NCBI GenBank assembly: GCA_009103225.1
Contig: RHPI01000638.1
Span: forward strand, 496,001-560,000
DNA: 64,000 nt
Reading direction: 5' to 3'
Source: Chlorokybus atmophyticus
Taxonomy: Eukaryota; Plantae; Mesostigma and Chlorokybus algae
The notes under the pieces were generated by a model. It had not been told where the DNA came from. It made no database searches and saw nothing but the letters and a program-made list of their open reading frames with translations. Positions 2,572 to 41,667 of this stretch are shown here, one piece after another. A program made the position numbers and the translations under genes. How positions within the stretch are numbered: the stretch's first letter is position 1; each line of letters begins with the position of its first letter.

Positions 2572-3059
2572 TGTGACTCGTTTAGGGTTTGTAAGCTAGC
2601 AACCTTAAATTGATGCCCATACCCTAAAGTCTTGCTCAGTTTGTGGGCAGCCGTGCCAATTTATATTATGCATGATTTTGGCGGCAGTTGTTGAATCCCC
2701 CTCACCTAGGAGACCATGCTTGGTGTGAGGGGGGAAGTGCTCCCTCCTCCCTTAAATCCCCTACCCCAACACCACCACTAGCCACGACGCCGCTACCGCC
2801 GCCGCCAGGGCAACTGCCGGAGCTGGAGATCCCCTGGCTATGGCGGTCGCTGCGTTAGCAGCGCCGCCATGCGGCTGATATCGACATGAGACTCGTGTCT
2901 CATGTCGATATCAATATTACAGATAAGTAACACTACATTGGGGCCGTAACATAGGTTAACGGCCCTAATATGGCTTAATAGGCTGTATAATCCCGTTGGG
3001 ACCCTCATTTAATCCTAAATAAGGGCGGGGAACCTCTATGGAGGTAGCACACCGTTACA
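2572..3059 (-). repeat. 3' LTR (488 bp) of a truncated Gypsy/chromovirus element
   Basis: On the minus strand it begins TGTAAC (3059) immediately after a polypurine tract AAGTGGGGGGAA (about 3060-3071) and ends GTCACA (2572). It lies directly downstream of the chromodomain-ending pol. No partner LTR is present. Confidence 0.8.
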
Positions 3060-4961
3060 TTCCCCCCCACTTAGGTTTTAATGTCCTCATTGAAGGGTTA
3101 GCAAAGCCCCACCACGAGTAAAGGAACGAAAGTAGTAAGAGAATTAGGGCCGAATCGGTAAAGATGTCTGCCAGCACCCTTTTACCGTCCGCGTGTGGAC
3201 ATAGTATTCCAGTACCCTCGAAGAATCTCCTGGCAGTTGGTAAGATTCCTTTTGGGCTCCCATGTATTGTGCTCAACACCATACCCTTTCCATTTCATCA
3301 AGTAAGGCGGCGCTCGTCCGCGTCGAGGCTTACAATGACTTAGCATTGCTTCCACCTCATGCTCGAAAGTACTGTCGCCATCCACTGCAACGGGGGGTAG
3401 AGGAGGTTGAATTCAACCGTCAAAACAGTACGGTTTCAATACACTCACATAAAACACATTGTGAATGCGTATCAATTTTGACAAGTGCAAACGATACGCG
3501 TGAGTGCTGACCCGATCAATCACTTTAAAAGGGCCTATCCAGCGAGGGAAAAACTTGCGGGTACCCACTCCCTTAATGGATATGTCTTTGGTGCTGAGAA
3601 GCACCGAACAGCCCACATCGTAGTTGGCCTCTCTACGATGCGCATCAGCATGGGCTTTTTGTCTGTCTTGCGCTGCGCGCAAACAGTCCTTTGCCAACGC
3701 TAACCTATCCTGCATGGCCGAAGCCATCTCGCGCGCTGAAGGTACGCGAGTTATGTCGGTAGCGGGCAACTTAATGTTTGCAGGACTCAGTGGATGCACT
3801 CCATAATTCAAGAAGACCGGAGTTTCCTGCACACTCTCTTGCCATGCATTGTTAATCGCGAACGCAGCCATTGGGAGATAAACATCCCAATCAGATTGGT
3901 TCGGACTCACATAATGCCGGAGTGGTTTCCTCAATCACTTGATTGGCGCGCTCTGTCTGACCATCCGTCTGTGGATGGTAAGCTGTGCTCATGTTGAATA
4001 TGTAAGAAGCTGCATAGCGACTTCTAGAGCTGAGCTACAAATCGCGGATTGCGATTAGACACGAAGTTACGAGGCAAGCCATGTAACTTAAACACATAGG
4101 CGACAAAAACCATTGCTAACTCACGGGAGCCTATTTTCGTGCGGCAAGGGACAATGTGAACCATTTTTGTTAAACGGTCCACAAAAACTGCAACCGCAGT
4201 GTGCCCCAATGCTATCTCCGGGAGCTCAGTAATTGGGTCCATACTCACACTTTCCCACTTGCCATCAGGAACAGGCAAAGGTCGCAGCAACCCAGCGGGT
4301 TTCTGACGTAACGGCTTGTCACGCTGACCTTTGTCACACGTGTCAACATATGCTTCACGTCAACAGGCAACGATGGCCACCAGTACAATTGTTGCGCTGC
4401 CTTAGTAGTCTTGAGACCGCCAAAGTGCCCAGCATAGGTGGATTGTGTACTTCAGCTGTGCATTTTATGCGCAACCCAGCATGGTCAGATATCACCAAGG
4501 CTGGCGCCCATATAATATAAGTTGTCTCTTTTGTCAAGCTGTTGTACATTCTCTTGTATAGAGAACCATGGGTCCAATGCATACCCCTGTGAAACAGCTT
4601 GCACAAATTTATCATCATGAGGCAATGTACCCTGCGTTGCAAGCAACTGCGCACGCATAACTGTTAACAATGACGGACAGCGACTTAGGGGATCTGCCAC
4701 GTTGGTTCTGCCCGGCCGGTATATCCATTCAAAGGTAAACCGCGACAGGAACTCATTCCAGCGAGCTTGCCTACGCGACAAGTTTAGTTGTGTTGAGAAG
4801 TACACCAACGGGTTGTGATCGGTCACCACTGTGAACTGAACTCCCTTTAAGTAACATCGCCATGTTTCAAGAGCATGCACTATACCAAGCAATCCCTGCT
4901 CAGTGGTAGTGTAGTTTTCACCTGTGGAGGTAATCTGGCACATTGGATAGCGATGTAACAC
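3060..4961 (-). pseudogene. Truncated Gypsy pol remnant: RNase H, integrase and chromodomain
   Basis: RNase H NYTTTEQGLLGIVHALETWRCYL..VVTDHNPL (4485-4961); integrase PLPVPDGKWESVSMD..VFVDRLTKMVH (4024-4290) and WDVYLPMAAFAINNAWQESVQETP..GPFKV (3413-3934); chromodomain YLMKWKGYGVEHNTWEPKRNL (3182-3385). Broken by frameshifts; gag, protease, RT and the 5' LTR are absent. Confidence 0.92.
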
Positions 4962-5160
4962 TGCACGTTATGTTGAGCGTATGCTTATCTCATGCATGTT
5001 GAAGATGTTGTCGCATTCAGAGTAGTCTTTTCAGTGGTAGTGTAGTTATCACCTGTGGAGGTAATCTGGCACACTGGACAGCGACGTATCACTGCATGAT
5101 ATGTTAAGCGTATGCTTATTTCATGCATGTTGAAGATGTTGTCGCATTCAGAGCAGTCTT
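4900..5160. repeat. Tandem duplication of a 131-bp unit
   Basis: 4900-5030 and 5031-5160 both start TCAGTGGTAGTGTAGTT and end CATTCAGAG(T/C)AGTCTT; about 90% identical by eye. Confidence 0.9.
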
Positions 5161-5257
5161 CCACGTTGTGGGCGTGGGTAGTTCAACCCCCTGGCCGCTG
5201 TAACGGAGGCAGACCATCAACCGTTGGAGAGTGCACTGAATTGGCTGCAGAACGCAT

Positions 5258-5614
5258 TTGATGGAATGCGAGCAGCTGATCGGTGTGAGTGTTATGGTGC
5301 ATTGGCCGCGGGATGGGGAATGGTATGCGGGCATTGTTGAATCATTCAAGCAAGCATCAGGCCAGCATCGCTTCTTGGCGTGCGAGATTGGCGACGCATT
5401 ATATATGCATGGTGCAATGGAAATTGGCTTTGCAGGGCAGCACCGTATAGTATTTGATAACGATGACCGACCACAAACCATCAATTTTAAATGGCACAAC
5501 GTATTCGCGTACAGGTACACATCAGCTGACGGGGCACGCCATGTTCTGCGCGCCGGAGGGGAGAATGTCAGTCGCAAAATAAGCCCGGACGGCATCATGT
5601 TAGTCCCTGGCTAG
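5258..5614 (+). pseudogene. Tudor-like (royal family) domain fragment with a probable in-frame GC-AG intron (5361-5435)
   Basis: LIGVSVMVHWPRDGEWYAGIVESFKQASG|QHRIVFDNDD resembles the plant PTM/MSH6/PDS5-type Tudor pattern (V.V.WP.D..WY.G.V..Y....G.H.V.YDDGD). Removing 5361-5435 (GCCAGC...TTTGCAG) brings the GQHR half-motif into Tudor spacing. Confidence 0.62.
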
Positions 5615-5670
5615 CACCACAGCTAGCCTTGACCACATACACGCCAGTTAATTACAATCTTGGACGCACA

Positions 5671-6416
5671 CGCCGACCAAAGGCACTTAATTAATTCTGC
5701 GGCAGTGGCGGTGCTAGTGGCGGTTTATATCACGCAGGCTTTGACGTGACCGGGATGGACATAAGTCCCTCCTTTAAGTACACGCTGCCCTTCATACATC
5801 GCGATGTATGCACCCTGAGTGCAAGAAAACTGAGTGAGTACGAGCTCATATGGGCCATCCACCATGCCAGGCCTATTCAGATGCTATCTCGGCACCTCAA
5901 TGGGCGGCACATGGCACATCCTCGAGACACCAGGATATGATACCACTCGTCCGACATCTGCTGCTTGCAAGCCAGGTCAAGTTTATGATTGAGAATGTGC
6001 CAGGAGCAGCTTCCTCTTTCAGACCCAATTTGTCCCTTTGTGGCACGATGTTTGGCCTACCAACCTTGCGACACCGTCTGTTTGAGACACAACCAGTGGT
6101 AGCAACCCCATCAGCACGCTGCTCGCACGCGGGCAAGGCCGTTGGATTGCTATCGCCGCACCTGTCCGCTAGCGCGAAGAAGACAATCGTGACATCAAAC
6201 GCGCCACAGCAAATGTACCCGGCCTATGGCCTTTCAAGCACTAGGGGCGGCATTGCTGCATGGCAAACAGCGCTGGGAGTGCCATGGATGACCTCGGCCA
6301 TTACCATAGCGAATACAGTTCCTCTGGCAATAGCGGAGTGCATAGGGCGTCACATGCTTGAAAAAATGGATATGCGCTATAACTACCCTCATATGTTATG
6401 GCACTATGAGGCTTGA
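5671..6416 (+). pseudogene. Compact bacterial/phage-type C5 DNA cytosine methyltransferase, disrupted by one nonsense codon and one frameshift
   Basis: Motif I RRPKAL(N)(*)FCGSGGASGGLYHAGFDVTGMDI (stop at 5692-5694 where LDLFCG is expected); IWA then a 1-nt frameshift into motif IV PPCQAYS (5859-5879); motif VI FMIENVPGA (E at 5991); motif VIII LCGTMFGLPTLRHRLFE; then ALGVPWM and motif X IANTVPLAIAECIG. The variable region is very short. Confidence 0.9.
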
Positions 6417-7070
6417 GTGTGGTGCACTATTTTTAGGCTTAATGTCACACAGCTGAGTGATCGTTGACTGTTGCATTCAACATTCGATTGTGGTGACAGT
6501 TGTGCGGTAACAGCTGCCCGGTATTGTATACGTCTACATGCGAAAGTCTTAGCATACGATTAGCAATGCCTAACTGACTGATATGCTCCGAACTTAGAGT
6601 ATTGAGACTTTTGAAGGATTAGCATGCACATGTAGCTGAGGCAAGCATAGACACACAGAGACAAAGCTACCGCCACCAGAGCATACACAAGTCACATCAC
6701 ATTCATCTATTACAAGTTGTCCGCTGGTTCTTATACCAGCTAGTTACACACACGTCTACGTTTGCAAGCACTGCGTAAGCTATACTCAACCTTTTGACGC
6801 GCTCTAAGCTGTGTTGTCTTCCTTACAACCAGAGCTTTTCAACAAGCTCTTACACGCCTAATACGAGTAAGTATACGCGGAGAAGCAGTTGGTAAGGCTC
6901 TAGTCTGGAGTCAGGAGTCTGGTCCGACGACGCCATCTTGCTAAGTCCGGACCTAGTGCTCGTCCTTACGACCTTCTATTCTTGTGTGGAGGGTCGATGC
7001 TGATCGTATGTAGGAATGACTCTCAACACTCCCACGCGAGCAGCTTGACCTCCAACGCTTGCTCCTGTAC

Positions 7071-10000
7071 TCAAACACAGATGCCAAGTCCTGCGCAACA
7101 AGTCCTGAACTTGAGCGGTGACAATGGCTTTGTCATAAAGTACGCTAGCATGCCCTCAGTGTTGCAGTACCGGAACTCCACCTCCTTCCTTGTGACTCTG
7201 TCACGCACAAAGTGATGCATGACATCAATGTGCTTCGTCCTTGCCGAGGCGATAGGGTGCTTCAACAACTTAATGGCTCCTTGGTTGTCACAGTTGATGA
7301 CGATGCACGCCATGGGGTGCTCCAAGTCTGCCATGAGCTTGCGAAGCCAGAGTGCCTCCTTCACTGCTGCTGCCGCTGCCATGTACTCAGCCTCTGATGT
7401 AGATGCTGCTGTTGTTGGCTGCAGCCTGCTGTTCCAGCTCACCACGCCTCCGTTCAGCTTGAAGACGTAGCCTGTAGTGGACCTCCTGCTGTTGAGGTCA
7501 CCAGCAAAGTCTGAGTCGCAGTAGCCCTCCAACGCAATGCTTCCAAACTTGATGCCAACTGTTGCGCTCCCAGCAACATAGCGTAGTACTCCCTTTGCTG
7601 CCTTCCAGTGCTCCATGCTCGGTGCAGACATGTAGCGAGCAAGTACTCCCACAGCATGTGCAACATCGGGACGTGTGCACACTGCCAGATAGAGCATGCT
7701 GCCTACCAGCTCACCATATGGATACTGAGCCTTGTCGAGTACCTCCTCATCCTTTGCCTTGATGAGGGCAGTGCCAAGTGCCAACGGTGTGGTCTTGGTC
7801 TTCGCTTCATTGAGCGAAAACTTGGTGACGAGTCTTCTCACCATTTGCTCCTGACTAATCTTGATTGTGCGTGCAGCCCTGTCGCGCTCAACCACCATGC
7901 CAAGGAACCACTTAGCCTCTCCAAGATGACGAACTGAAAATGCTTGCTGTAGAGCAAGTTTCATCTCCTGCAGGTGGTGCACCTGCCTGGCGGTGATGAT
8001 GTCATCAACATACACGAGCAGCCAGACCTTGTTGTCTGCATGGATGAAGAGCCCAGGGTCTGCAGAGGATGCGGTGAAGCCAAGTGCCTCCAGCTCCTTG
8101 GTGAGCTTGATGTGCCACATACGCGGTGCCTGTCGCAGCCCGTACAGTGCCTTGATCAGCTTGCACGCTGTGCCTCTCTCCCCTTCTTCATATCCAGGTG
8201 GTTGCTCGATGAAGATCTCCTCCTCCAGCTCTCCGTAGAGGAAGGCAGTCTTCACATCCAAGTGATGCAGCTCTAGGTCTTCAGCAGCAACCATAGCTAG
8301 CAGTGCACGGAAGGTGGTATGCTTACTTGCAGGTGCAAACACTTCGTTGTGTTGAGATTCGGACACTACTGACCATGCATGAAGTTGGTGCAAGCACAAG
8401 TACACACACTCTACCAGAGCATACACACAAGGTTGATCCAAAAGGCTTTCTAAGGATTACAACAAAGTCACACCGCGGGCTTTTATACCCGCCAGTTCTG
8501 CACCTGTCTACTCTAGAAGCCACCACGACTTCTACACTCAACCGATTCCTGCGCTCTAAGTTGCACCACGTAGCTACTTTTAAGAGCTTTGCAACAAGCT
8601 ATGACACGCGCCATACAATGACGTAACCACCGAGCTACAACGTTTCTTCTACAGCGCCTGGAAGTCTCCAGACTCCGGACTCGACTCCGCGCCTGGAACC
8701 TTCTCGACTGAAGTCCTCGCCTGGACCTTTCTCGACTGGCACCTTCTCGCGCCTGAATCTTCTCGCGGCTATTCTTATCCACAGGGCAAGCTGACCGGAT
8801 ACAAAAATATCCTCTACACGTTGAAGTCCACACCTTCCTGCTGCAAGAAGCTCTTTGCCACCAGTCTTGCCTTGTAGCGCTCAATGTTGCCCTGACCATC
8901 ACGCTTCACCTTGAAGACCCATTTCACTGGAATGGTCTTCACTCCTTACGGTAACCGCTCTAGTGATCAAGTGTTGTTGGCATGGAGTGACGCAATCACC
9001 TCGTCCATAGCACGCTGCCATTGCTCCGCATCTGGTGCTAATAATGCCTCCTCGTAGGTGCTTGGCTCCTCATTGTGCACACTGGCGACATGTGCCTTGT
9101 GTAAGAAGTCAGGTGCCTTTCTCTCCCTCATTTGGTATCTCCGAGCTGCGTGCTCCTGCTGCAGGTGCGGCTCCTTCTGGCCTGCTACAACTGAGTCTCG
9201 CTCACCCTTGTTGTTGATGACTGCCTCGCCCTCAGCCTCCACTGTCTTAGGATGCTCATGTGGCTGTACTTCATCGTCATCTCCCGGAAAGAAGCCTGCT
9301 TCTGGTTGTGATAATCCCTCATGGAAAACCACCTCTCTGCTCACGATGATCTTCTGAGTATCCTCGAGCAAGATCCTGTAAGCCTTGGAACCCGGTTCAT
9401 AGCCAACGAAGATGCCCTTCTTGCTGACCGGCTCCAGCTTGTGCCTGAGCTGTTTAGGCACTAGTGCATATGCCGTGCATCCAAACACACGCATACCACT
9501 CACATCTGGTGTGGCTCCATAGAAGTGCTCCCACGGAGTCTTCTGCTCTGAGCTCACCGGAGACCTGTTGCGGATGTAGTTGGCAGTGAGTACCGCCTCC
9601 TTCCACAAACTGTCTTCCATCTTTGTGTCGTTGAGCATGGCTCGAACACGCTCCACGAGTGTCCTGTTGAGGCGTTCAGCTGCTCCATTTCTGCTGCGGG
9701 GTGTAGGGTGCCGTTGTCTCGTGGCGTATGCCCTTGCTGGCGAAGAATTCCTTCAACTCCTTGTTGATGTACTCCCCTCCTCGGTCACTCCTCATTGCCT
9801 TCATCTTGTTGCTAAACTGTGTCTCCAACAAGGCCACAACTGTGCGCACAGCTCCAGCAATTTCTGACTTGAGCGTTAATGGAAAGATAATGGACAGCTT
9901 GCTATAGTTGTCGAGGAATGTAGCAAAGTACCTGGCCCCTCCCTTCGCCACAATGCGCATAGGGCCACTGACATCCATGTGCACAAGCTCGCAAGGATGC

Positions 10001-11439
10001 TGACTGCTAGAAGAGGATGTTGGGAATGGCATAGCATGCTGCTTTGCAACCAGGCATGGTTTACAAAGTGCACCTGATGCATTCTTGAGTTCTTCTGTGC
10101 TGAGATTGATGCCCTTCACCATCTTCTCAGCGACAAGGCGAGTGAGGTTGACGTAGCTGAGATGCCCGAACCTTCAATGCCACAACATTGGCGAGGCCTT
10201 GTCCTTCACCACCATGGCTTGAATGTCAATGTCCTTGGGGTGCTGCTCCACGTGGTAGAGCCCTCCTGGATCAGCGATTCCAACCATGTGCACGACCCCA
10301 TCAAGGATGACTGTGCAGCCACCCTTCCGAAATAGGATCTCCGCGCCTAAGCGCTCCGCAACCCTCACAGAGAATAGACTCGCAATAGCCTTAGGAACAT
10401 GCAGGACGTTGCGTAACAACACCTCGCGTAGTGTGTTACCAACCTTGCACTGGAGTCGTACGTTGCCAACTCCCTCAGCCACCAGTACTTTGCCACCGAA
10501 GCCCGCCACCTTGATTGTGGACGTCAGCTTCCTGTAGCCCTCCATCTCCTCCTTGGTTGGTGTGAGATGACGATTGCAGTCAGAGTCCACCACCCAGAAA
10601 GCTGTGCCCGCCCTCGAACTGGATGCAGTGAAGGTGACATGTTTCTCCTTGTGTTGGTGCTCGTTGCCGCTGTTGCTGGTGCTTGTTCTAGGTTGCCCCT
10701 GTTGTTTCTTCGTACAGTCCCACACAATGTGCCCCTTCCAACCACACCAGTGGCATGTGAGGTCTTTGTGACGAGGAATGCCTGGCTTGTTGCCTTTGTA
10801 CCTCTCTTCATGGTTGCTCTTCTTTGCGTGCTTGCCGGTGTAGAAGGCGACGGCATCCGCTTGCTCGTCCTTCTTCACAACCCTCTGCTCCACGGTGAGC
10901 AGCTTCGGTAGCACATCGTCCAACGTCAACTCCGATGATGACGTCTCCAGCAGGGTTGCGACGACCTCGTACTCTGCTGGTAGCCCTGCAACAATGGCCA
11001 GCACTACCTCCGTCTCCCCCATGTTGTGGCCGACGTTGATGAAGTCCGCCCATAGCTCTCTCGCGCGCGCAACATACTTTGTGATGGGTTCTGCTGCCTC
11101 TTTCCTGAGTGCGCTCAGCTGCTTGCGTAGCTGCAATTTTCGAGCGTTGTTTTTGGCTCTGAAAACGGCTGATAGCTTTTCCCAAGCTTGTCTACCATCT
11201 TCACATGCAGTGAGCATGGGAAAGTGATGCGGTTTGCTGTTCAACACAAGCAAAGAGTGTGCTTCTGCTGAATGCTCTGACCACACAGTGTTCGCTCCTG
11301 GTGTTGGTGGTGGTGCCTTCGGATCAACGTACTTCCACACCTTCTTGTGGATGAGCAAGGCCTTCATCTCCACGCACCATGTGTTGTAGTTGTCGGTGTC
11401 CAGCTTTGCAATCTGCCCCTTGTCGTAGGTCGCCTCCAT
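7071..11439 (-). pseudogene. Copia gag-pol, frameshifted and interrupted by a solo LTR
   Basis: Gag MEATYDKGQIAKLDTDNYNTW.. with CHWCGWKGHIVWDC knuckle; protease WVVDSDC (DSG mutated); integrase ELVHMDVSGP..RSDRGGEY..ETTAPYTPQQ; RT WVFKVKRDGQGNIERYKARLVAK, HHLDVKTAFLYG, LLVYVDDI; RNase H YCDSDFAGDLNSRRSTTGY..RTKHIDVMHHFVR. Confidence 0.95.
8350..8818. repeat. Solo LTR (469 bp) inserted in the Copia RT
   Basis: TGTTGA...CTACA termini; TSD CGTTG at 8345-8349 and 8819-8823. Excision restores RT GVDFN|EVFAP. Shares blocks with the LTRs at 60893 and 63212. Confidence 0.92.
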
Positions 11440-12035
11440 TTCTGTCGAGCCTGCCTTTCTTGCAGTTGACACCCAAGGCTCTGCTACCAACAAGCTACCG
11501 TAGTGTAGAACTACTATGCACACAAGCTAGTCTCACACTTTTCAAGCGTAGTGTGGGCCCACAACCTGTTGAAGGATTAGCATGCACATGTAGCTGAGGC
11601 AAGCATAGACACACAGAGACATAGCTACCGCCACCAGAGCATACACAAGTCACATTACATTCATCTACAAGTTGTCCGCTGGTTCTTATACCAACCAGAT
11701 ACACACACGTCTACGTTTGCAAGCACTGCGTAAGCTATACTCAACCTTTTGACGCGCTCTAAGCTGTGTTGTCTTCCTTACAACCAGAGCTTTTCAACAA
11801 GCTCTTACACGTCTAATATGAGTAAGTATACGCGGAGATACAAAGCAGTTAGTAAGGCTCCAGTCTGGAGTCAGTCAGGAGTCTGGTCCGACGACGCCAT
11901 CTTGCTAAGTCCGGACCTAGTGCTCGTCCTTACGACCTTCTACTCCTGTGTGGAGGGTCGATGCTGATCGTATGTAGGAATGACTCTCAATAGAGACAAG
12001 TACATGTGGCACGTGGCAGTGCAGTGAACGTTCAC

Positions 12036-14503
12036 CTAATACTTGTCCTCTTGTACACGGGCGCTGTCTTTGTCAAACATGGGGAGCAGTTGGACAATGT
12101 CTTGTACTGGCTCCAGAGTCACGATATCGAGATGTGGACTCTCTCGACGCTTTTCCCATTCCATAGCGATGCACTTTGTGTCGCTCGTCACATCCAGCTT
12201 CATGTACCAGCGGACAAACACAACCTCCTTCCATACGCGCCCGCCACTATCACCCCACGCCACCACGCGCAGTAAAAGGAGTGCCTGAGCCCACCACGTC
12301 ACGTTCACACCGTCCTCATCACCTTCAGAGAACCATGGCCGACTAAAGAACATTCCAGTTGCGCGCGCCATGCTGACGCCTGATGTCATGTGCACCGCTG
12401 CGCCTCCGTTCACCACGCAAACAGCACGCCGCCCATCGGCTAACTCCAATTGTTCCCTCCTCAACCAGCTGTCCAAGATGGCAGGCGGCTTGTCGGCGAA
12501 TGGAGTCTACAGGGCGACTTGGCGGCTTCGCGCAAAACCGCTCCAGTACGGGCTGGACTCCCTCATTGTCAGCACATCCATCCATAGCAACTTGTCCATC
12601 TTCTCCATTACATTACATTGCTGCTGCGCCATGACCGTCGTGCATCTCGGGATCCACGACCATGCCGTCCTCTCTCACATATTCCGCACAGCTCCATGCC
12701 TTCCAGATTCGCGTTTGATAGTCCCGGTTGTTGCCACCACGCGCCCATTATTTGGTTTATTGGGCATGCGTCTGCTCCATGCGATTGGCGCTGAACCAAT
12801 CTGAGTGTCCACTACTGACAACTGCCGACGCAAGATAAGTGAGCTAATAATGCATATTCTCGATCTTCCAACTTAACTTTTGTGCTAAATATGACGACAG
12901 TAGCGGGTGCAACACTGCGGATTTAAAGGCAGCCAGCTCGTTGTCGGATGTGATCAGGGTCTCGCTTGTGTGTTCATGGGCCTTGAGCAACTTCTTGTTC
13001 CACTGGGCAAGCGATGCAGCAGCAATGGTGAGGAAATCGTTGGCCTCACTATCGAGCAGCACACCATCTGCAAGGGCCGGCAGCAGCTGCAGCACCGCCA
13101 CTTTCTCCACCACCTTAAAGGAGTGGTTAAACAGAGAGAAATCCACTGTACTTGTGGGTACCTTAAAGTGCAAAACCCGTAGTGTCGCCTTACATGCATT
13201 CAGCCTGTGCACATTTGCTTGTGAGCACGTGTCGTTGGCTTTTGTTGTAACATAAATGCAATGCCAAAGACGTGCCTGGTTTGCAGAATCCGTCTCGTGA
13301 ATGGACGCATGCGTTCCTTCGTAGCGTCGTACACAGCAGCAAGCAGGTGGTCAATGATGCCTCTCAGCACATGCATTGCGTCAGGGGCAAGGCGAGAGTA
13401 GCAATCAGCTCCCAGCATCCGCGATTGTTGCCAACCCCATAGTGCATTCTGTTGCCAAACATCAGTGCCTGGTTACGCGCAAAGCCATTCATCTTCACTG
13501 CCGGTGATTTGACCATTATCTTCTAGACATGCAAGGAGAGCTGCTATTTAAAAGCCTTGGCTGTTTGGCGTGCATTTTAAATAATGCTATGCAGGTACAC
13601 CCGCAGCTGTCGTATGAATGATGTGTAGAAAGCCTCGGGTTTCAGTTTCGCGTCCTCATCCATCTCCAACAGATTTAATTTGGTGACGAGACAAACATTG
13701 CAAGGATGTCGTGTTTGGTTGCCCGACACAATGCGTGCGAGTGTGGCAGTCTTCTGCAAATACACATCTCGGATACTCCACTGACATCCTCCATGCACTG
13801 TTTGCCGGCAGGTTGCATCCGGTTACAACCACGCATGTCCACTACCTGCAAATCGCTGATGTAGTTGGCAAGCGCGGGAAACGTACAACGTTCGATGCCA
13901 TTCGGGTCGATGAGCTACAGCCCTTCTTAGCTCGCCCGCTTCACATCCCCTAACACTACATTTAGCATCATGAAAAATCTCACATTTTCGAATTGGGAAC
14001 AATTCCTTGCCCTGCGCCCAAGTGGGATGCCCGGCCACTGCGTGAACCACCGGCAGAAGCGCTATCATAACAATTCCCATGTTACTAGCATGCATGTCCC
14101 AATTGCCAGTGTAGGTGGCAAGCAATGCCATTGGAGGGTAGCTAGAGCGCTTGCCCGCGCTGTTTAGCGTAGTCTAATCACTCTACGAAATGGCAGGCGC
14201 CAAGTAGGACGCTTCCCTCACCTCTCTCCGCAAATCCGCCTCAACATCCACCAATCGCCCGTGGAAGGATGGCCAAAGCTGTGTGGGTTCCACTGTACTG
14301 AACATTGAAGCCATTAGCGGCATGTGGATTGCCATACAACCGCGCGAGCCATACCTGCTCCGACCAAGCAATGACAGCCATGCTGGCCTCAGATTAAACA
14401 TTGCATTTTACAGACTTTGGCCGGCATATATGTGACGCTGATGTCCCGATCCTGAGGGTCTTCAGGCTTGCGCAGGTCAGCCGTCACGTAGTTCTGATAC
14501 GGC
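12036..14503 (-). pseudogene. Plavaka-type (EnSpm/CMC-related) DNA transposase, core and C-terminal part, decayed
   Basis: Across frames: HPSTGDWWML; LAPAIS*SD*TTLNSAGKRSSYP; IVMIALLPV; ATLARIVSGNQTRHPCNVCLVTK; PDAMHVLRGIIDHLL; FSANRMEQTHAQ*TK*WARGGNNRDY; RATGMFFSRPWFS..WWAQALLLL..VFVRWY..DIVQLLPMF. These match the motif order I recall for Plavaka transposases. Confidence 0.78.
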
Positions 14504-15199
14504 AGCACTATGACGGTGCTCGTGCCTTGTCATCTGTGAGTTGGTCCAATCAACAACCCTCTCACCAAGACACAGTATTTACACCAGAACCTTGCCCCCT
14601 CTGCCAAGCACACACGCGCGCCTCGCCACTCGCGTACGCACGCGCATGCGCTCGAAGCTACACACCCACTTGTGTAGCGCCTTGGATCGTGACACAAGCA
14701 AGCACACACCGGTGGACACTTGCTAGCAACCCCTGCTAACCACCACCAAGCTTGCACATAAGAAACTAGGGAGCTAAAGGTTGTATTGCAAATTGTAGAG
14801 TGTCACTTTTATACCTACCAGTCTGCACATGCTACTGTCTAGACGATTCTAGCGCTAGACGGAACTAGAAGCTAAAATATATTTGCAGAATCTTGTAGTA
14901 CACTTCTAGACCTTTCCAACGCACCAAAGATCTTCTAATTTGCTGCTCATATGGTCAAGTTATACTACTTGGCGCCAGGCCCTTCCAGAAATCTGGTCGA
15001 GCCCTTCTCGACTGGCCCTCCGTTTTCTGGCACCTTCCGGACTGGTCTTGGGGCCCCGGTCGATATCCGCGGCAGACTCATAACTCGCCGATATCCACTA
15101 GAAGTCATAAAAAACATGTACCTTACAAATAAGGCCTAAAGCGGCCATGAAAATCACAAAATTTGGCCTTGACTGTTACACTCCTCCCCCCCCAGGTGA

Positions 15200-18100
15200 G
15201 CTTCGTCCTCGAAAGCTCGCGAGGTTGTCGTCAAGCAAGATAGGCACGCACAACGTCTTGAGCATTAGTCAAGTGTGCCTCTGGCTCCCAGGATGCTTCA
15301 TGCAACGGATAGCCCTTCCATTTTACTAAGAACTTGCGTACGCCATGCACAAACTTCACACAAGGATGTCTTCTACCTCCCCCTCTGGTTCACCGTCCGT
15401 GCCAACTTCGGAGGGCGGCCTTTCTGGCGGTTGTCCTCGATATGCTTTTAGAAGGGAGACGTGAAAAACGGGGTGCACACGCATGGTGTCGGGTAGCTCC
15501 AGCATGTACGCTACGTCCGAGACAACTTGCTGACCTTAAATGGTCCCAACCAGCGTTCATTCAGCTTGCGAACTCCCGTACGCACCTATACGTGCTTCGC
15601 GGAGAGTAACACAATGTCGCCTTCCTGAAACGTGAGGTGTCGGCGATGCGCGTCCGCGTACTGCTTCTGCCGATTTTGTGCCACCAATAGCGCCTCCCTA
15701 GCTGCCTGATTAATGTCCGCGCACTTTGTAAGGAAGTCATTGGTTGCCTCCACACGCACGTCATGTCGTCGCGGTGTCCATGTCGTCAACGGTGTCAATG
15801 GATGTTGCCCGTAGTTCATAAGGAAGGGAGTGACACCTGTGCTTGCATTGTGGTGGTTGTTGATTGCAAACTCCACCAACTCAAGCAGCTCCGCCCAATT
15901 GTCTTGTCGCGCGTTAACGTAGCAACGCAACATGTCCTCAATCACACGGTTGGCCCGCTCCGTTTGCCCATCAGCTTGCGGGTGGAATGCCGTGCTAAAC
16001 TTCATTGTCGTACCAAGTGCACCATGCAGCGCCTCCCAAAACTTACTTGTAAAGCGCGGGTCGCGATCACTCACAATGCTTCGTGGTAATCCATGAAAAC
16101 GAAACACATGCTTCACGAACAAGCGTGCTGCCTCCGGTGCCGTGCAAGACTCACTACCCGGTGCCAAGCGTACCATTTTGCTGGTTTTGTTGACGAACAC
16201 AAGTATAGCGTCGTACCCTTCTTTTGTCTTTGGTAGCCCCGTGATAAAGTCCATGGTAACTTGCTCCCACTTGGATAATGGCACAGGGAGAGGTTGCAGC
16301 AACCCACCTGGCTTTTGGTTGCTTGCCTTCACCCTTTGGCATGCGTCGCACAACGCCACGTAGTCGCGCACATCGCGATGCATCTCTCGCCAGTAAAAAC
16401 GGTGCTTAAAGCTTGCCAAAGTCCTCTCCAACCCTTGGTGACCAGCAATGGGCACGTCGTGAGCTTCCTTCAGCAACTTCACACGGATATGCGTGACGTT
16501 GGGGATGTAAAAGCGCCCGTGGTGCCAAAGCAGCCCGTCGCGCATTGACCAATGCCCACTTGTGTCCGTAGCTGCATTTTCCAGCTCTTGCAACACTTTC
16601 ATACCCTCCGTGTCTTCACGAAGCACTTGCCGAATCTGGTCGGTCCACTCGGGCTGCACTCGAGCCAGGGCCTCAATTGCATTAAGCCGGCTTAGCGCGT
16701 CAGCAACACCATTTGACGTACCGGGCTTGTACTTGATATTGAAGTTAAAAAGTTGAAAGAACTCAAGCCATCGAGCTTGTCTACAACTTAGATGAGGTTG
16801 TGTTTGTAAGTACCTCAGTGGAGAGTGATCCGTCTCAAGCACAAACTTTTTGCCTTTCAAAAAACAACGCCATTGTCGTAGCGCCATGACTTGCGCTAAA
16901 AGTTCCTTCTTGTGCACGGGGTAGTTCAGCTCCGCACCACTCATCTTCTTGCTGAAGAACGCTACTGGATGAAGGCCATTGCCATGGTCTTGCTGCAAAA
17001 CAGCTCCTACGGCTGTGTCGGACGCGTCGCAAGCCAAAATAAATGTCTTTTCCATGTCGGGGTGAGCCAGGACCGGTGCCTCCATCAGCGCCTTCTTCAA
17101 CGCAGCAAATGCATGTTCCTCTGTTGCTGACCAGCGCCAAGGCTTTCCCTTCTTGAGTAGGGCAGTTAAGGGAGCAGCTATGCGCAAAAACCCCATGATA
17201 AACTTGCGATAATACCCCGCAAGGCCTAAAAAGGACATCACCTCTTTTACGTTGGTTGGGGAAGCCCACTCGCGCACCACCTGCACTTTGTTGGGGTCCG
17301 GCTTGATGCCTTCATGCGACACGATGTGGCCTAGGTACTCCACCTCTCAAAGCAAGAATTTGCACTTTCGTAGCTGGGCGTACAACTTGTGTTCGCGCAA
17401 ACGCTGCAACACGCGCCGTAGAAGTGCCACGTGCTCCTCCTTTGTTTTCGCGTACACCAAAATGTCGAGGTACACGAGAACTCCCTTACCAATCAAATCA
17501 GCAAAAACGCTGTTCATAAGCGTTTGAAATGTTGCCGGTGCGTTCGTAAGTCCGAAAGACATGACCAACCACTCGTAGTGCCCATAACGTGTGTTAAAAG
17601 CTGTTTTCTCCACATCCTCGGGCGCGATGCGGATTTGGTGCCTCCAGCAAGATCAAGTGTTGTGAAGTACTGCGCACCTTGCAATTGCTCCAGCAACTCG
17701 TCGATACGTGGGAGTGGAAAGCAATTCCTCTTCGTGATGTTGTTGAGAGCTCGGTAGTCGACGCACATGCGCAAGCTCCCGTTCTTCTTTCGTACAAACA
17801 AAATAGGTGCACCATAGGGGGACTTACTAGGCCTGATGTAGCCTCTTTTCAGCAAGTCCGCCACCTGCCTCTCGACCTCTTCCAGCTCCAAAGGTGACAA
17901 CTTGTATACGGGTCGATACGGTGGCTTGTGCACGCCCTCAATTAGCTCCACACGGTGGTCTACGCTCCGTGGAGGTGGTAGACCAGATGGAAGTCCGTCC
18001 ACCATGATATCTTGGTATTCTTTAACAAGTTTACACACCTTGGGGTCCATTGTAGCCGTCTTAACATCGTCACTCAGCTCTGGTGCTGATTTTGCAGTGT

Positions 18101-18750
18101 TTTCGCGCACCACGCACAACCATGCAGCCTTTGCCTTCCGTGCAGACAATAACTTCCTCAATTGCACATAACAGATCTGGGCAATTGTCGTACCACCTGA
18201 TTGTGCGTGCCGCGCCTCGATGACGTCCGACGCAGCTTGAATGGATTCTCCACCATTTCGTTCGATGGTGAGCGCGCGCTTCCTCCAATTGATGGATGCA
18301 TTATGTTGCCATAGCCACGGCAGTCCCAATATCCCGTCAAACCCGTTCCGTAGGGTGATGCAGCAAAATCGCTTGTTCTCCTTCATCTTCCCAATGCGAA
18401 CGCACAACTCTTTGGTCATAAACGCAGCGCCATCACCTCCAGAGGGTGGCTCTCCATTAGCGAGCTTCACTTCACCTCCTTGTAATGACGAATGCCAACC
18501 GTGACGCCGCGATATCAATACTCATGAAGTTGCTGTTGGCACCGCTATCAATCATGAGCTTACACTCTCTCCATCGTCCTTGGTCAAGGCAATTGTGTGC
18601 TCGAAGCCCAAAGTACTTTGTTGTCTCCTCGTTTGCATAACTCACCACCATTGGCGCGTTCAAAGCCATCTCCTCTTGCTTCTTTAATGGAAATGTCACA
18701 GCATCCGTCCGTGCATGAGGCTTCTTCCTATCCCCAGCAGTAGCCTCCTC
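15200..18750 (-). pseudogene. Gypsy pol: PR, RT, RH, IN and chromodomain
   Basis: PR LMIDSGANSNF; RT SPYGAPILFVRKKNGSLRMCVDYRALN, a frameshift after LDLAG, and YLDILV (one Asp of YxDD deleted); RH CDASDTAVGAVL..TDH; IN KEAHDVP..GHQG..CDACQ, MDFITGLP, SDRDPRFTS, DGQTERAN; chromodomain KFLVKWKGYPLHEASWEPEAHL at about 15240-15350. Confidence 0.95.
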
Positions 18751-18752
18751 AC

Positions 18753-19820
18753 CTACTGGGGGAAGTCCTTTTCTTGCTCCACGCCATTTTGCTCCATCGT
18801 GTTGACGCGACGATCACGGCGAGGGTTGCCATCCGGTGTTGGCCTTTGCGTGCTTCGTTTGGGGCATCCGTACGCAAAATGCTCCGTCGACCCACACGCA
18901 TAACACTTGCGCACACCTTTACCTCTTTCACCACGTCCGCCGTGCTTCGCCTCACTTCCATGCGTGTGTATGGCACCCACCTCCATTGGTGCAGGCCCAG
19001 AGTCAGCTCCACCTCCATTGGCAAGTGCTAAACTTGGTTCTCCTCGTCTCCATGCATGTTGAAAGCCTCCCCGGGGCTGATCACCATGCCTTTGCCTCCA
19101 GTCAGTGTTTCTTGTGGTGGACTTGAAGTACAACGCGTCGAGACGCTCCGCGAGTGTTTTTTTCTTCGGGTCCCGTAGCTCCACTTCTTTACGCCTCAAA
19201 GGTTGTAACCCACGTGCATACCTGTCCAGCTGCTCCTCCTCGGTCATATTGGGTATGGACATCACCAATCGCTGAAACGCGGCCGTGTACGCCATCACCG
19301 ACCCCATTTGCACAAGGGCTGCAAGTTTGTCGCGTGCGGCCTTCACGCTCTCAACGGGAACAAATTGATGCCTGACCTCCAGTGCCAACTCTTCCATGGT
19401 GGTCAATGGTAGCGCCAACCCGTTTGCAACACGCGTACATCGATGCCTCCACCACACAAGTGCTGCACCTTCAAGCAATGTCGCTGCAACCTCCACGTGC
19501 AGATGCGTGGGCACCTCCGTGAGCTTCAACCAAGACGATACTTGAAAAATCCATTCATCCACTGCATTTCCATCATGTTGACCCCTGAATGGCTTGGGCT
19601 TTGGCACTTTCACATGCACGCGCGAGCTTGATGCCATGGGAATTTGTATACGCGCCATCGCATGCTCATACGCCTCGCGTTGTGCTTGTGACGTCGCTTG
19701 CGTGTGATGAAGCTCTTCTCTTAATGCTAAGATGGCAGCTTGAAGCTCTTCCATACGAGCATCCTCCATCTCCACTAACACACTACACTCCGGTTTCGAA
19801 TGAAAAGTGTAAACGCCCAC
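18753..19820 (-). CDS. Gypsy Gag (355 aa) with a CCHC zinc knuckle
   Basis: Open ORF with PKPFRGQHDGNAVDEWIFQV, AARDKLAALVQMGSV, QLDRYARGL and CYACGSTEHFAYGC. Pol starts in the -1 frame overlapping the gag end. Confidence 0.9.
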   Translation of the reverse strand: MGVYTFHSKPECSVLVEMEDARMEELQAAILALREELHHTQATSQAQREAYEHAMARIQIPMASSSRVHVKVPKPKPFRGQHDGNAVDEWIFQVSSWLKLTEVPTHLHVEVAATLLEGAALVWWRHRCTRVANGLALPLTTMEELALEVRHQFVPVESVKAARDKLAALVQMGSVMAYTAAFQRLVMSIPNMTEEEQLDRYARGLQPLRRKEVELRDPKKKTLAERLDALYFKSTTRNTDWRQRHGDQPRGGFQHAWRRGEPSLALANGGGADSGPAPMEVGAIHTHGSEAKHGGRGERGKGVRKCYACGSTEHFAYGCPKRSTQRPTPDGNPRRDRRVNTMEQNGVEQEKDFPQ

Positions 19821-20539
19821 ACACTTCCTCTCTCACCTTCGTAAACCGTGCTCCGATACCAGTTGTGACGGTGCTCGTGCCTTGTCACCTGTGAGTTGGT
19901 CCAATCAACAACCCTCTCACCAAGACACGGTATTCACACCGGAACCTTGCCCCCTCTGCCAAGCACACACGCGCGCCTCGCCACTCGCATACGCACGCGC
20001 ATGCGCTCGAAGCTACACACCCACTTGTGTAGCGCCTTGGATCGTGACACAAGCAAGCACACACCGGTGGACACTTGCTAGCAACCCCTGCTAACCACCA
20101 CCAAGCTTGCATATAAGAAACTAGGGAGCTAAAGGTTGTATTGCAAATTGTAGAGTGTCACTTTATACCTACCAGTCTGCACATGCTACTGTCTAGACGA
20201 TTCTAGCACTAGACGGAACTAGACGCTAAAATATATTTGCAGAATCTTGTAGTACACTTCTAGACCTTTTCAACGCACCAAAGATCTTCTAATTTGCTGC
20301 TCATATGGTCAAGTTATACTACTTGGCGCCAGGCCCTTCCAGAAATCTGGTCGAGCCCTTCTCGACTGGCCCTCCGTTTTCTGGCACTTTCCGGACTGGT
20401 CTTGGGGCCCCGGTCGATATCCGCGGCAGACTCATAACTCGCCGATATCCGCCACAAGTCATTATAAAGATGTACCTTACAAATAAGGCCTAAAGCGGCC
20501 ATGAAAATCACAAAATTTGGCCTTGACTGTTACAAGCAC

Positions 20540-20960
20540 ACTCGCATGTGTATATGTGACATGGCTCCAATGGTTGAAGCACATGCGCCGCACACCGTTA
20601 ACACACTTCAGACTGAGAGAAAGCAATGGTGGTCCGGAGGTAGCTGGCCACATGCACACCGGTCTTACACTGGAGCTTTTCTGTTAGAAAGTGTGCATTT
20701 CGGATGCACTTGATGATCCGCCCCATGTCGGAGGCCGACAGGCCTTGGCCGTTGTTGCACTGCACGAATGCCACTGCAAGAGCATGCTCCGAGCCATACC
20801 ACTTGGATTCCGACGCGTGCGAAGGGACGCCTCTTCCATGTTGGCGTGCCACAGGTTTCTCAGGCACACGCACACATTGAAAGCCCTCGTTCACTTCCTC
20901 CTCCTCCTGTTGCTGCTGTGCGTGTGTCTCATGGAGGGGTCATTCAGCATAAAGCATGTG
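20540..20960 (-). pseudogene. N-terminal part of the Plavaka-type transposase, separated from its core by the Gypsy insertion
   Basis: SEHALAVAFVQCNNGQGLSASDMGRIIKCIRNAHFLTEKLQCKTGVHVASYL. Removing 14509-20539 joins THASV|LPYQNYVTADLRKPEDPQDRDISVTY in one frame. The outer boundary is approximate. Confidence 0.6.
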
Positions 20961-21230
20961 CGCATCCTTGATTGAACTCCCCGGTTCAATATGACCCGCA
21001 CTGTACTGTAATGGACGCTAACCGTCATACAGCTTGATCGGCTTGCACACCCTGCTGCTAACAATGTGCATGTAGACCGAGATGCGTGTGACGAAACTCA
21101 TGTGGTAATACGGACAAAGGACTCCCATAGCTTGATACTGATGTTGACACAGGTGTCGCCAATGTAAACTGCCTCATCATATCCAGCAACACGCACAACC
21201 GCCGCCGCCGCCGCTACCTTTGCATGCCAG

Positions 21231-22415
21231 AGGTGGGAAACTTGGCCGCTATTCACTGGGGTGACGGCTCCGGCATACCATTACTATGGTACGATCGAGC
21301 CATTGCATGTCCAAGGTGGGGTGAGTTTGCATCAATATCCTGATTGAACCATTTCAATGGTACGAAGATGCCTTTGCAAAAAGGTACCATTGATATGGTA
21401 CCTTTGTACAGTGGCAATAGCAGTTCGTACCATTGACAGGTGCTGGCAATGCCAGTCCCTGCGCATGAAGACACCATCAATGGCTCCGCCAAGCTATGCC
21501 CGTACAGGGCGGTGATGCTTAGGGTATGTGGCTTTTGGTGGATCGTTGGCGGCGCTGCTAGGAGCGTAGTGGGCGTTGTGGTCGATGTCCGGGATGAAGC
21601 CCATGTTTGCAAAGGGCGGGCAAGGTGCCGGTGGGGTGTCCTGGGTGTAAAATCCCACCATGCCTACCAAGGGCACAGCCAATGACAACGTGATTTAGGC
21701 AATATCTTTCAGGGCTCCCCCTCCGAGTGGGCACAGTACAATACTGCCTTCAAGAATATCCGACCCACTAGCAGCTGCGACCACAGCGACATAATTAAAG
21801 GGATCAAACAAGACTGGCATAACCAAGGTGGGTTATAATGCACTGTCAATGCCACATGCTAGGGTTCTTTTATCTTGCACATCCACAGCCACAAGAGTCT
21901 TGCACATGACATACACTGTCAATACCACATGCACACCCTCATGCACAGCCTCTAGTGTCATATACATGAACAGCATGACCAATCTTGCAAATGCACAGCC
22001 TATTTCTACTTGCGGGAGCTCACAAGCGCAAAAGAGAAGCTGCGGAGCAACACAAATGGGTGATTCATGCTCTGGTTTGATGTTTTAAGCAGTATGCTTG
22101 CAGATTGCTAAGTTGGTCAGCGTAAACCAAGAGCAGCGCGGCAGGCTGACTGTCTGCCTAGCGGAGTGCAACAAAGCGGAAGACAAGGTAAGCATGTGTA
22201 TGCTAATGGGCTAGTCCTCTGGCAGCACACCACTCTTACAACATTACCAAATGCAGGTGGTCACTCTCAAAACGACCACCAAGCGCATGCGCGTGCACGG
22301 CGAGGTGCTGACATTTAAACTGAAGGACGAAGTAGCCGCTGTATTGTTAGCGAGCGAAGCAGAAGATGAAGATGACTCCGATGTTGAAGTAGAAGACTTG
22401 TCGGAGGAGGAATAG
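21231..22415 (+). CDS. Candidate spliced gene of unknown function with an acidic C-terminal tail; may be a pseudogene
   Basis: Exons 21231-21320, 21440-21523, 21713-21827, 21999 to about 22059, about 22107-22187 and 22257-22415, with GT-AG boundaries. Four of five junctions keep the frame; one (about 22059/22107) does not. Ends ...EAEDEDDSDVEVEDLSEEE*. The 5' end was not found. Confidence 0.4.
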
Positions 22416-23884
22416 GAGGAGGGGGTTAAGGAGGAGTTTCGAGGCCGGCATCACGGGTTGACAAGCTGCGCATGAGTGCGACAGCTAGATTCAATGTTGT
22501 AGGTAGTTTCATGTGCAAGTCGGCTGCTCAGTTGCAAGTGGACATACTCTCACCACTCATAGTACGTTGTATATATTGTGGGCTTCTATGTGTGGAAGAC
22601 CAAACAATCAGTGCAAGGTTTGTACAAGCTGCATGGCATGTTAGTGTTGCCTTACGACGAGTATTGCCAACTTTTATCAAAAGGTAAGGGTCACATATTA
22701 ACAGCAGCGTAACGGCAAGGAAATTGCCGGCTATTGCTGTTGTCTGTTCGTAACCACCGGCTAACGGCCATCTGTGCACATCGAGCAAAGGGTAATTGGT
22801 TGACAACTCTGGGCCGGTCAATGCCGCAGACAACCACTTTCGGCCCGCGGCCGTCTGCGTCAATCCACATGAGCCAACGGCAAATCTAACAGTCCAATAT
22901 ATCATTTCAGGCAGGCTCATGCACCCGTCAGTCCTTAATTGATCACCGTGTAAGATGTGCGACGTTTCTGCACGCTTATGATGATCATATTTGTGTGTAA
23001 TTGTTCATGCTGCGATGCCATGTACTCTTGCCACAAGGCTTTTATGGTGTTTTGATTAAACAAGGGTCCACATGGGGCTGGGTTGTGACTGCACAGCTAT
23101 CTACCATGATATCACTGAAGGCATCACACATGCTTCCCTTTTCAGCATACAGATGGTGGTAAGCAAATGAAGTGGCGGATTGAGGCACACAACTACAACT
23201 CAACGTCATCGTTACCAGCAGCATAGACAACGAGATGAGACTCGATAATCACCCTTATACTATTTATACGAAAATAAAATAAATAACAACAATAAAAGTA
23301 AATAATAAAAGGATGATACCACATAGGCGAATGCGGTGCTTGCGGAAGGCGCCGCGTCCGCCCATGTGTAGATAGTCAGCCGCTGTGTATGCATGGACCA
23401 CTGTGATGTAGTGTGCGGTGTGTGTGCGCGTATGTGGTTTGATAAGGGAGCGTTTTGCGCAGTGTGCCATTGCGAGGGATGGAAAGCGCAGCAAAGGTGG
23501 GATGGCATCGTGCCATGTGACATGTTTGGTGGGTAGGCTGCCAACGACATGTAGGGGGCTATTTATTGCATATTTGTAGGCTATTGCTGACATCATGTTA
23601 TAGTGTGAGTGCACATGCTTTTTAGCTGTGCACTATTGCCGTTTTGATTACTTACCTAGCCATCAGCTAGCTGAGACCCCATATTGCTGATGCTGATAAC
23701 ATGCATATTCGTATGTGCGACAATGTGTCATTATGCATAGTGTTGTGGGTACCACCTACAACACCATAGCGTGCTTTACATGATGTCTGGGTGTGTGTTT
23801 ACACTGCATGGCATTGCAATACTAATGCCGACATGGCTTTTGTGTTATACACATGTGTGATGTGGTACAATAGTTGCTGTATGT

Positions 23885-24282: not shown

Positions 24283-24685
24283 TGATGCATGCATATGTAC
24301 ACATCTGGTATATATAGTAGAGGTAGGCATGTGCACTCACTTACAGTCTTATGTAAGAAATGGTCGGCGCAAGCTGCATCGCGGGCCCTCCGCCGACGCG
24401 TGGTCAGAGAGGCTAGGCTAACCGCGACGCCGGCGGAACGACGGCCGCCGCGCGAACAACCCGCCGGTCGCGACTCCGTGTGAGAGTGTCCTGCTCTAAC
24501 CTCCACAGCCCTCTTGCGGCGCATTCATGGTTCCGACTCCGGACATGTAGCACACTTCATAGCTAACCACGACTGATTACAGACTACGATCGACGATCTT
24601 GGCAATCTCGAGAGGACAATCTGATCCAACGGCGCGTGAGACGCAGCGAAGGGTGTTGCAACTTGCAAGCGGGTTGGGCCGCGCA

Positions 24686-24900
24686 ATCGCCCAATCAGCA
24701 CGCGACTGGTGTGTGGACTTATCCTGACAATGTTGCAGCTACTGGTGTGCCCTAACCGGTTACATTGATAAGGTTACCACTAACCGTCCATAAACAACAA
24801 TAAGAATGATTGCTGCGAAAACCTGGGCCCTAACTGGTTGAGCTGATAAGATTGACGTTAACCATTAGGCAGCTGATTTAACCAGCACTCACTAACCGAA
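24686..24900 (+). promoter_or_regulatory. Putative Lhca upstream regulatory region
   Basis: I-box-like GATAAG at 24767-24772 and 24845-24850, and CTAACC at 24752, 24780 and 24892, about 160-310 bp upstream of the ATG. These are short motif matches only. Confidence 0.3.
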
Positions 24901-25062
24901 TTCTGACTATGGTTAATGCCCAACACTGCCCTTGAGCGATAGACTAGTGTACTCGCTTGCTCAACACGAGCTGTGGGTAAAGGCGTGGTTGGCGGCGGCG
25001 TAGGTGTTGGTGTCGGTGTTGGTGGTCGCCATACCGGTGGAGGTGGAGCTACAGCCGGCGCA

Positions 25063-27940: not shown

Positions 27941-30900
<2,960 letters not shown>

Positions 30901-41322: not shown

Positions 41323-41667
41323 TGTGACAGCCTTGTAGCTGTACACTTGTGCGCATGTAGTGCCTATAATTTCTTGTTAAGGTCTCAGATGACCTCTGAA
41401 TGGCATGAAACTTTGAGTTCGTTATTGTGGCACAGCGACGCTTGTGCAGAGCCAAGAAACGTGAAATTGAACGCGGTTTGCTATGGTTGCACATTGTTTG
41501 GCTTATAACTTTCGTTTGCGGCCTCGGCTAGACGCAAATTCCTATTATTTAGAGCCGCTCTTGAGTTTGAGCGCTGAGAAACGCTTTCTTTTGACACCTT
41601 AAACGTCATAATCGAACATCGTTTGCGAAAATTATGCCCGTTATAAAGTGGGAGTGCTTGCACTCAC

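Follow-up and report, generated by a model that had tools for sequence, protein, structure and literature searches.

A broken Tudor-methyltransferase gene beside a Plavaka-like transposase

The plus-strand gene that can be read from Met 5261 is not a lone gene: it belongs to a repeated family, is broken in this copy and adjoins a Plavaka-like transposase. The reading that we prefer, with a probability of roughly 0.7, is that this copy belongs to the cargo of a Plavaka-like transposon and that the common form of the gene encodes a single protein in which a Tudor domain is joined to a C5 cytosine methyltransferase (C5-MTase). The window (the whole 64-kb stretch of DNA that was analysed) is a field of nested transposable elements, whose types suggest an algal host, and the features that bear on this reading are collected in Table 1.

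Table 1. Features of the Tudor-MTase gene and of its putative carrier, with the evidence for each (X1, public sequencing run described in the text).
Feature	Positions	Strand	Evidence
5' part of the repeat family, left-truncated against a Gypsy remnant	4922..5260	+	X1 contigs; 131-bp tandem duplication
Tudor exon 1, from Met 5261; a further upstream exon is possible	5261..5360	+	phmmer match to 7de9_A
Predicted intron of 75 nt, in frame, with acceptor TTGCAG; its donor is GC in this copy and GT in the common form	5361..5435	+	X1 contigs, acceptor scan, Tudor register
Remaining Tudor domain (HRIVFDNDD) and linker; frameshift 5597/5598	5436..5673	+	extra X1 base behind 5597
C5-MTase motifs I-III, with TAA 5692-5694	5674..5857	+	phrog_363 48-121, tblastn of homologues, extra X1 base behind 5857
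C5-MTase motifs IV (PPCQ), VI (ENV) and VIII (RHRLFE), short variable region, motifs IX-X, stop	5859..6416	+	profile and homologue matches
Copia LTR retrotransposon in the MTase-transposase spacer	6609..11992	-	LTR pair, RVT_2 and gag Pfam matches
3' part of decayed Plavaka-like DDE transposase gene	12036..14508	-	PF18759 match, spacer length
Gypsy LTR retrotransposon within the transposase gene	14509..20534	-	LTR pair (97%), pol Pfam matches
Likely 5' part of the transposase gene	20540..22500	-	continuity on both sides of the Gypsy target duplication
Candidate right end: CTAACC/GGTTA-type short-repeat cluster with a terminal TAGTG (minus strand: CACTA)	24300..24949	.	hexamer counts, repeats

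The methyltransferase half

A C5-MTase can be read on the plus strand from 5674 to 6416 across an in-frame TAA (5692-5694) and a frameshift (5857/5858), as the initial annotation had proposed, and every motif that it named was found in its place. Motif I (F-C-G-S-G-G) lies immediately 3' of the TAA, followed by PPCQ (5859-5870), ENV (5991-5999), RHRLFE (6069-6086), NTVP (6312-6323) and the stop codon (6414-6416), with motifs I, IV (PC), VI (ENV), VIII (RxR) and X in canonical order. In the PHROG profile search, phrog_363 was the sole match of both pieces of the gene, the N-terminal one covering profile positions 48-121 (E 6.1e-8) and the C-terminal one positions 120-214 (E 7.5e-6). Because the pieces match consecutive parts of the same profile, the likeness is not a chance one. 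Pfam PF00145, the profile that had been put forward as a check, was reached by neither piece.

At E<=0.001 the C-terminal piece retrieved 1554 cluster representatives. Its matches also comprise 12 compact proteins of 188-238 aa (29-44% identity) and 267 phage records, mostly from actinophages, 261 of them aligned over at least 80% of the piece. The relatives that carry a name are PHROG 363 and actinophage genes annotated as "DNA methyltransferase", in agreement with the prokaryotic or phage type assigned to the enzyme at the outset; judged by these homologues, the MTase family is phage-type. With the PHROG 363 phage C5 MTases (Gordonia phage Yakult gp45, Mycobacterium phage U2) the window gene has in common the whole catalytic domain and a short variable region, and its two pieces are 36-40% identical to Yakult gp45. 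However, gp45 is a stand-alone protein of 217 aa that adjoins a DNA polymerase, whereas the window MTase shows a Tudor fusion, a predicted intron and a eukaryotic transposase as neighbour.

In C5 MTases, the target base is flipped, the cysteine of the PC motif attacks C6, and the ENV glutamate and the motif VIII arginines are used. The catalytic Cys of PPCQ, the Glu of ENV and the Arg-x-Arg are all retained here, which suggests that the intact MTase would be catalytically competent. Motif X of this copy departs from the family at two well-conserved positions (P and Y), and homologues carry Leu, Ile or Val at the site of the TAA (a genetic code in which TAA encodes Gln was considered). A demonstration of activity for this short MTase family was not found in the papers retrieved.

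One frame in the common form

The evidence on the frame comes from X1, a single public run from one study and of unstated kind, possibly the source of the window itself. From this run, 103 contigs cover all 30 bins of 5100-6620, many of them divergent, as expected of dispersed copies of the gene; in runs X2 and X3 nothing aligned to the gene region. Contigs of the common form have a depth of ~140-150 and one contig identical to the window copy has a depth of 4, depth not being equivalent to copy number.

Two extra bases distinguish the common form, one behind 5597 (depth 109.7/118.9 in one contig, with the same base in the loose end of a second) and the other behind 5857 (depth 148.7/148.7, five contigs). 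The only other high-depth indel is an in-frame loss of 6 nt at 5509; two further insertions, at 5255 and 5258, are seen in a single contig (depth 4) and precede Met 5261. With the X1 indels, Tudor, linker and MTase share a single frame, which spans 359 codons between Met 5261 and the MTase stop. Thus, in the common form the extra bases behind 5597 and 5857 place both domains in a shared frame, which supports the fusion initially proposed. A single 1-nt indel near 5605 had been expected to join the two halves; the joining indel does exist, and its position is 5597/5598 instead of 5605. Of the 45 X1 differences, 40 are listed and none of these falls on the TAA; the tallies leave one unlisted A>T, its place not given, that would fit a Leu codon at this site; we infer that the common form lacks the TAA. 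From these contigs, the likely product of the common form is predicted to be a single protein of about 358 residues, translated from a spliced message and comprising Tudor and MTase.

It is very improbable that Tudor and MTase represent two independent genes or remnants brought together by accident. They do lie in different frames in the window copy, and searches among longer proteins yielded no fused protein, either for the MTase (none at E<=1 among 2279 candidates, a weak test since the search missed known long relatives) or for the Tudor domain (none at E<=10 among 22 candidates, likewise weak). Nevertheless, the common form restores a single frame at both shifts, and the phage homologues (e.g., P0001) start with a Met just ahead of the residues that match RPKAL, whereas the MTase frame of the window has no Met of its own there.

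The Tudor half and its predicted intron

The Tudor-like ORF (5240-5614) had no match in Pfam, PHROG or NCBIfam and no usable one in the ESM Atlas. Its single PDB sequence match at E<=10 is 7de9_A (E 2.7e-4, residues 11-52), which corresponds to the Tudor domain of Arabidopsis RDM15 (PDB 7DE9; PMC8184781). With phmmer, exon 1 alone matched the same chain (E 5.9e-4), and the second exon alone had no PDB match. A single-sequence structure model of the unspliced ORF was poor (pLDDT 43.5), its best Z score of 3.3 being to unrelated chains.

Position 5362 is changed from C to T in six X1 contigs (depth 320.5/324.5), which creates a GT donor at 5361, and the acceptor scan located TTGCAG at 5435, delimiting an intron of 75 nt. 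Once these 75 nt are removed, the residues W, Y, H, F and D are spaced at exactly 0, 7, 21, 25 and 29 residues, the same spacing as W616, Y623, H637, Y641 and D645 of RDM15 (mapped from the 7de9_A alignment with the numbering of PMC8184781), and the three-residue aromatic cage W, Y, F is retained in register. Both the upstream Tudor-like reader and the intron of the initial annotation are thereby upheld, the latter as a prediction. No spliced contig or joint was found among the contigs of X1, a run of unstated kind, and a deep contig that spans the intron carries it unspliced; donor and register together point to a 75-nt intron that would be spliced in the common form.

According to the description in PMC8184781, the RDM15 Tudor domain binds H3K4me1 through its cage and two aspartates, with D643 and D645 selecting this mark and E647 serving H3R2. 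RDM15, the sole PDB match at E<1, resembles the window protein in the cage (W616, Y623 and Y641 correspond to W, Y and F) and in D645, which is also D here. In contrast, Asp643 is Asn in the window, Glu647 is lost (P in this copy), and RDM15 is, in that description, a host RdDM factor without an MTase domain. By analogy with RDM15, the retained W, Y and F would be consistent with methyl-lysine binding, most likely of H3K4me1. Further upstream, the X1 common form reads as a potential splice acceptor at 5198-5204, and from 5204 on its Tudor frame is open; the gene may therefore include an upstream exon that this copy has lost.

The probable carrier

On the left side, a 131-bp tandem duplication (4900-5029 and 5031-5160) spans the junction with a Gypsy remnant, and the left edge at 4922 is deduced from the 131-bp period. 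The X1 contigs fit the window from 5053/5058 and their letters upstream of that point are absent from it; since the contigs leave the Gypsy letters there, the copy is truncated at about 4922 and merely abuts the Gypsy. On the right side, the Copia element is flanked by a 5-bp target duplication (GAGAC at 6604-6608 and 11993-11997), and three X1 contigs pass from 6608 into sequence resembling 11998 onward. Without Copia, the MTase and the transposase gene lie tail to tail, with 230 bp between their stop codons. This heavily broken minus-strand gene has PF18759 (Plavaka) as its sole family match, with an E of 8.3e-5 and 22.4 bits, below the 26.3 cut-off, over 60 of the 325 profile positions (109-168). 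The Gypsy element inserted in it is also bounded by a target duplication (AGCAC at 14504-14508 and 20535-20539), and the stretch beyond (20540-22500) gave no transposase Pfam match.

The candidate right end contains 9 CTAACC/GGTTA-type hexamers in 24300-24950, versus 0-2 in five other stretches, and the TAGTG at 24945-24949 is a candidate end of the CACTA type; neither a partner left end nor a target duplication of the whole element was found within the 64-kb window. In the classification given in PMC12730594, CAC..GTG ends belong to EnSpm and not to PlavakaA/B. The distance from 4922 to 24949, minus both insertions, is 8.6 kb. Overall, the Tudor-MTase gene is likely cargo of a multi-copy cut-and-paste (Plavaka-type) DNA transposon, and the arrangement suggests that gene and transposase moved together.

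The gene could instead derive from another mobile or viral element, either the Gypsy remnant to its left or a giant virus that became endogenised, and lie beside the Plavaka transposase by chance, a scenario that we regard as quite unlikely. It would account for the contact with the Gypsy pol remnant at about 4921, for the presence among the best-scoring relatives of long-insert proteins encoded on contigs of up to 245 kb, and for whole-element ends found on one side only, as a candidate. However, the X1 contigs exit the Gypsy at 5053/5058 and cross the Copia site toward the 3' end of the transposase, and the gene carries a predicted spliceosomal intron and is oriented away from the Gypsy pol.

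The Gypsy remnant itself (about 2560-4921, minus strand) is the chromodomain-bearing 3' half of an element, with RNase H, integrase, SH3 and chromodomain (PF00385, E 9.8e-12), in which RT, gag and the 5' LTR are missing. The possibility that the Tudor-MTase gene is part of this remnant was rejected, as the gene lies on the opposite strand and the contigs of its family exit the Gypsy at 5053; on the same grounds, it is not a retrotransposon-borne DNMT within a pol ORF. Beyond the remnant, a decayed plus-strand frame (1353-2150) ends in a RING-like Cys/His pattern (about 1955-2115) and has no Pfam match; it may represent an additional cargo gene of the Plavaka-like element, severed by the Gypsy remnant.

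Relatives and origin of the methyltransferase

Some of the best-scoring representatives form a group characterised by a long insert within the variable region. When the window protein, with X at the breaks, was compared with a profile built from 13 proteins of this insert group, the score was 224.9 bits, whereas all 15 random 13-member profiles of plain compact proteins gave 172.7-199.1 bits; the insert group had been selected among the top matches of the same search, a bias towards the higher figure. A YG..RG signature was discarded as a marker of the insert group, since it is present in phage Yakult gp45 too. The profile of the 13 long-insert relatives had M.HaeIII as its best match (E 7e-9) and matched DNMT1 over only 27-34 positions.

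Phylogenetic placement varied with the method and the sample. FastTree with 149 sequences located the window protein in an 18-member group with long-insert and RT-fused proteins (0.74), and an incomplete IQ-TREE run with 54 sequences gave a different placement. With 38 sequences, IQ-TREE put it beside plain compact proteins (supports 0-86/45-59), whereas FastTree, run with these same sequences, grouped it with the insert-bearing proteins. These trees omit four tandem two-domain proteins, sequences shorter than 180 aa and the eukaryotic DNMT families. As they disagree and their support is low, no donor is claimed. Of the horizontal acquisition initially suggested, what stands is the part that would follow from family membership only.

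Two scans of viral contigs, with P0016 and P0013, gave no match, and a scan with the insert-group alignment gave 80 viral loci, counted as raw matches. The Tudor domain was matched in none of 3 viral records, and the metagenome loci L033 and L034 were rejected as chance matches in frames of other genes. Entry of the MTase via a virus of eukaryotes is plausible. Among 30 long relatives scanned for chromatin readers, three have an MBD within the insert and one has an N-terminal zf-CW, and in a further cluster member, a 1591-aa polyprotein with RT and OTU, the MTase domain comes first (relatives of these kinds are P0015, P0023, P0045, P0054 and P0164). These architectures suggest that the compact MTase family may have been fitted repeatedly with chromatin readers, and that an undescribed retroelement-borne form may exist.

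Comparison with known systems

A full-text search, with most subscription papers outside its reach, found no account of a Tudor-C5-MTase in a DNA transposon. Plavaka elements are described from green algae (PMC13519894). Red-algal Plavaka PAG2 consists of an N6-adenine methylase plus SET (10.1101/2025.02.11.637652), and fungal PlavakaB comes with TET/JBP, which oxidises 5mC (PMC12730594). As in the window, a Plavaka/EnSpm-type transposase is accompanied in both cases by an accessory gene acting on DNA marks; in contrast with the window, neither is described there as bearing a C5 MTase or a Tudor domain, and the word "tudor" is absent from the Bostrychia text. Fusions between readers and transposons have also been described (10.1101/2021.11.30.470311).

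Mobile elements with a C5 MTase of their own are known among retroelements, including SymbioLINE-Dnmt, SymbioDIRS-Dnmt3 and KnitGypsy-Dnmt3 (PMC5890265), as well as the EpiLTRs, which encode a C5 MTase and a chromodomain reader too (10.64898/2026.05.21.726589). As reported in these sources, however, the retroelement DNMTs are located in pol and are mostly DNMT3- or DNMT4-related, whereas in the window the MTase belongs to a phage family, has a Tudor domain on the same chain, and is encoded by a separate, predicted spliced gene with a DNA transposase as neighbour.

The bdelloid N4CMT, presented in PMC8885841 under the term "histone-read-DNA-write", is likewise a bacterial-type DNA MTase fused to a Royal-family reader; unlike the window protein, it writes 4mC, bears its chromodomain at the C-terminus and is encoded by the host, in which it silences transposons. 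Lineage-restricted DNMTs, often with a Royal-family domain (PWWP), are also found in green algae, namely ChloroDNMT and the "orphan" DNMTs, the latter thought to be of viral origin (PMC12344493), and giant-virus and orphan DNMTs have been described (PMC11244446; PMC12344493). These algal enzymes, compared here by description only, are not stated there to have a Tudor or DNA-transposon link, and "tudor" does not appear in the supplement.

Possible function of the intact protein

The plant-type Tudor domain is predicted to bind methylated histone lysine, most likely H3K4me1 by its likeness to RDM15. Once recruited, the intact protein would write 5-methylcytosine on nearby DNA through its compact phage-type MTase, with a loose sequence preference expected from the short target-recognition region. 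Known retroelement cytosine MTases can mark new cDNA, and a DNA transposon has no unmarked cDNA stage; a reader-guided C5 enzyme would therefore need another purpose, such as self-silencing, landing-site marking or mimicry of host gene-body methylation. Our tentative proposal, somewhat short of an even bet, is that the element uses the enzyme to methylate itself or the site where it lands, wherever the mark lies, which would keep its copies quiet or make them tolerable to a host able to read 5mC.

More speculative still is the broader evolutionary reading, in which a transposon assembled a minimal histone-read/DNA-write enzyme out of a virus-type C5 MTase and a host Tudor domain of the RDM15/PDS5 type, laying 5mC at H3K4me1, and in which the same MTase family acquired Tudor, CW and MBD readers on several occasions, in mobile elements and in viruses of eukaryotes. 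If true, a viral enzyme would have entered eukaryotic chromatin control via a transposon, and reader-fitted small MTases would constitute an unnamed parallel to CMT and DNMT3 targeting.

An unlikely alternative, though the least so of those considered, accepts the fusion as real and transposon-borne and assigns it a different role, either as a methyl-arginine or nucleic-acid tether or as a catalytically weak DNA-binding decoy against host silencing. VANDAL anti-silencing proteins, which act against host silencing, offer a model for such a decoy. The Asn in place of RDM15 Asp643 and the loss of Glu647 would suit this role, as would the very short target-recognition region. The retained catalytic Cys, Glu and Arg-x-Arg and the intact aromatic cage argue instead for the proposed reading and writing of marks, as do the CW and MBD readers fused to relatives. 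At about 358 residues, the predicted protein is small, which makes the link from histone mark to de novo 5mC easily testable and the protein a possible compact scaffold for epigenome editing.

Decay of this copy and other features of the window

Among the 61 substitutions that are listed, C>T and G>A changes in this copy account for 32, and changes in the opposite direction for 6. By context, the 32 changes comprise 9 at CG, 6 at CHG and 17 at CHH, versus 180, 175 and 469 sites, respectively, with no preference for CG. A substitution bias of this kind would be expected from the decay of a methylated dead copy.

Elsewhere in the window, a run of roughly 400 C with one N (about 29930-30330) is probably an assembly artefact. 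On the plus strand, 40070-44862 contains a DIRS-like retroelement of a known kind, with RT, RNase H, a Dam-like adenine methylase (PF05869, E 1.1e-5, below the cut-off) and a recombinase-like ORF.
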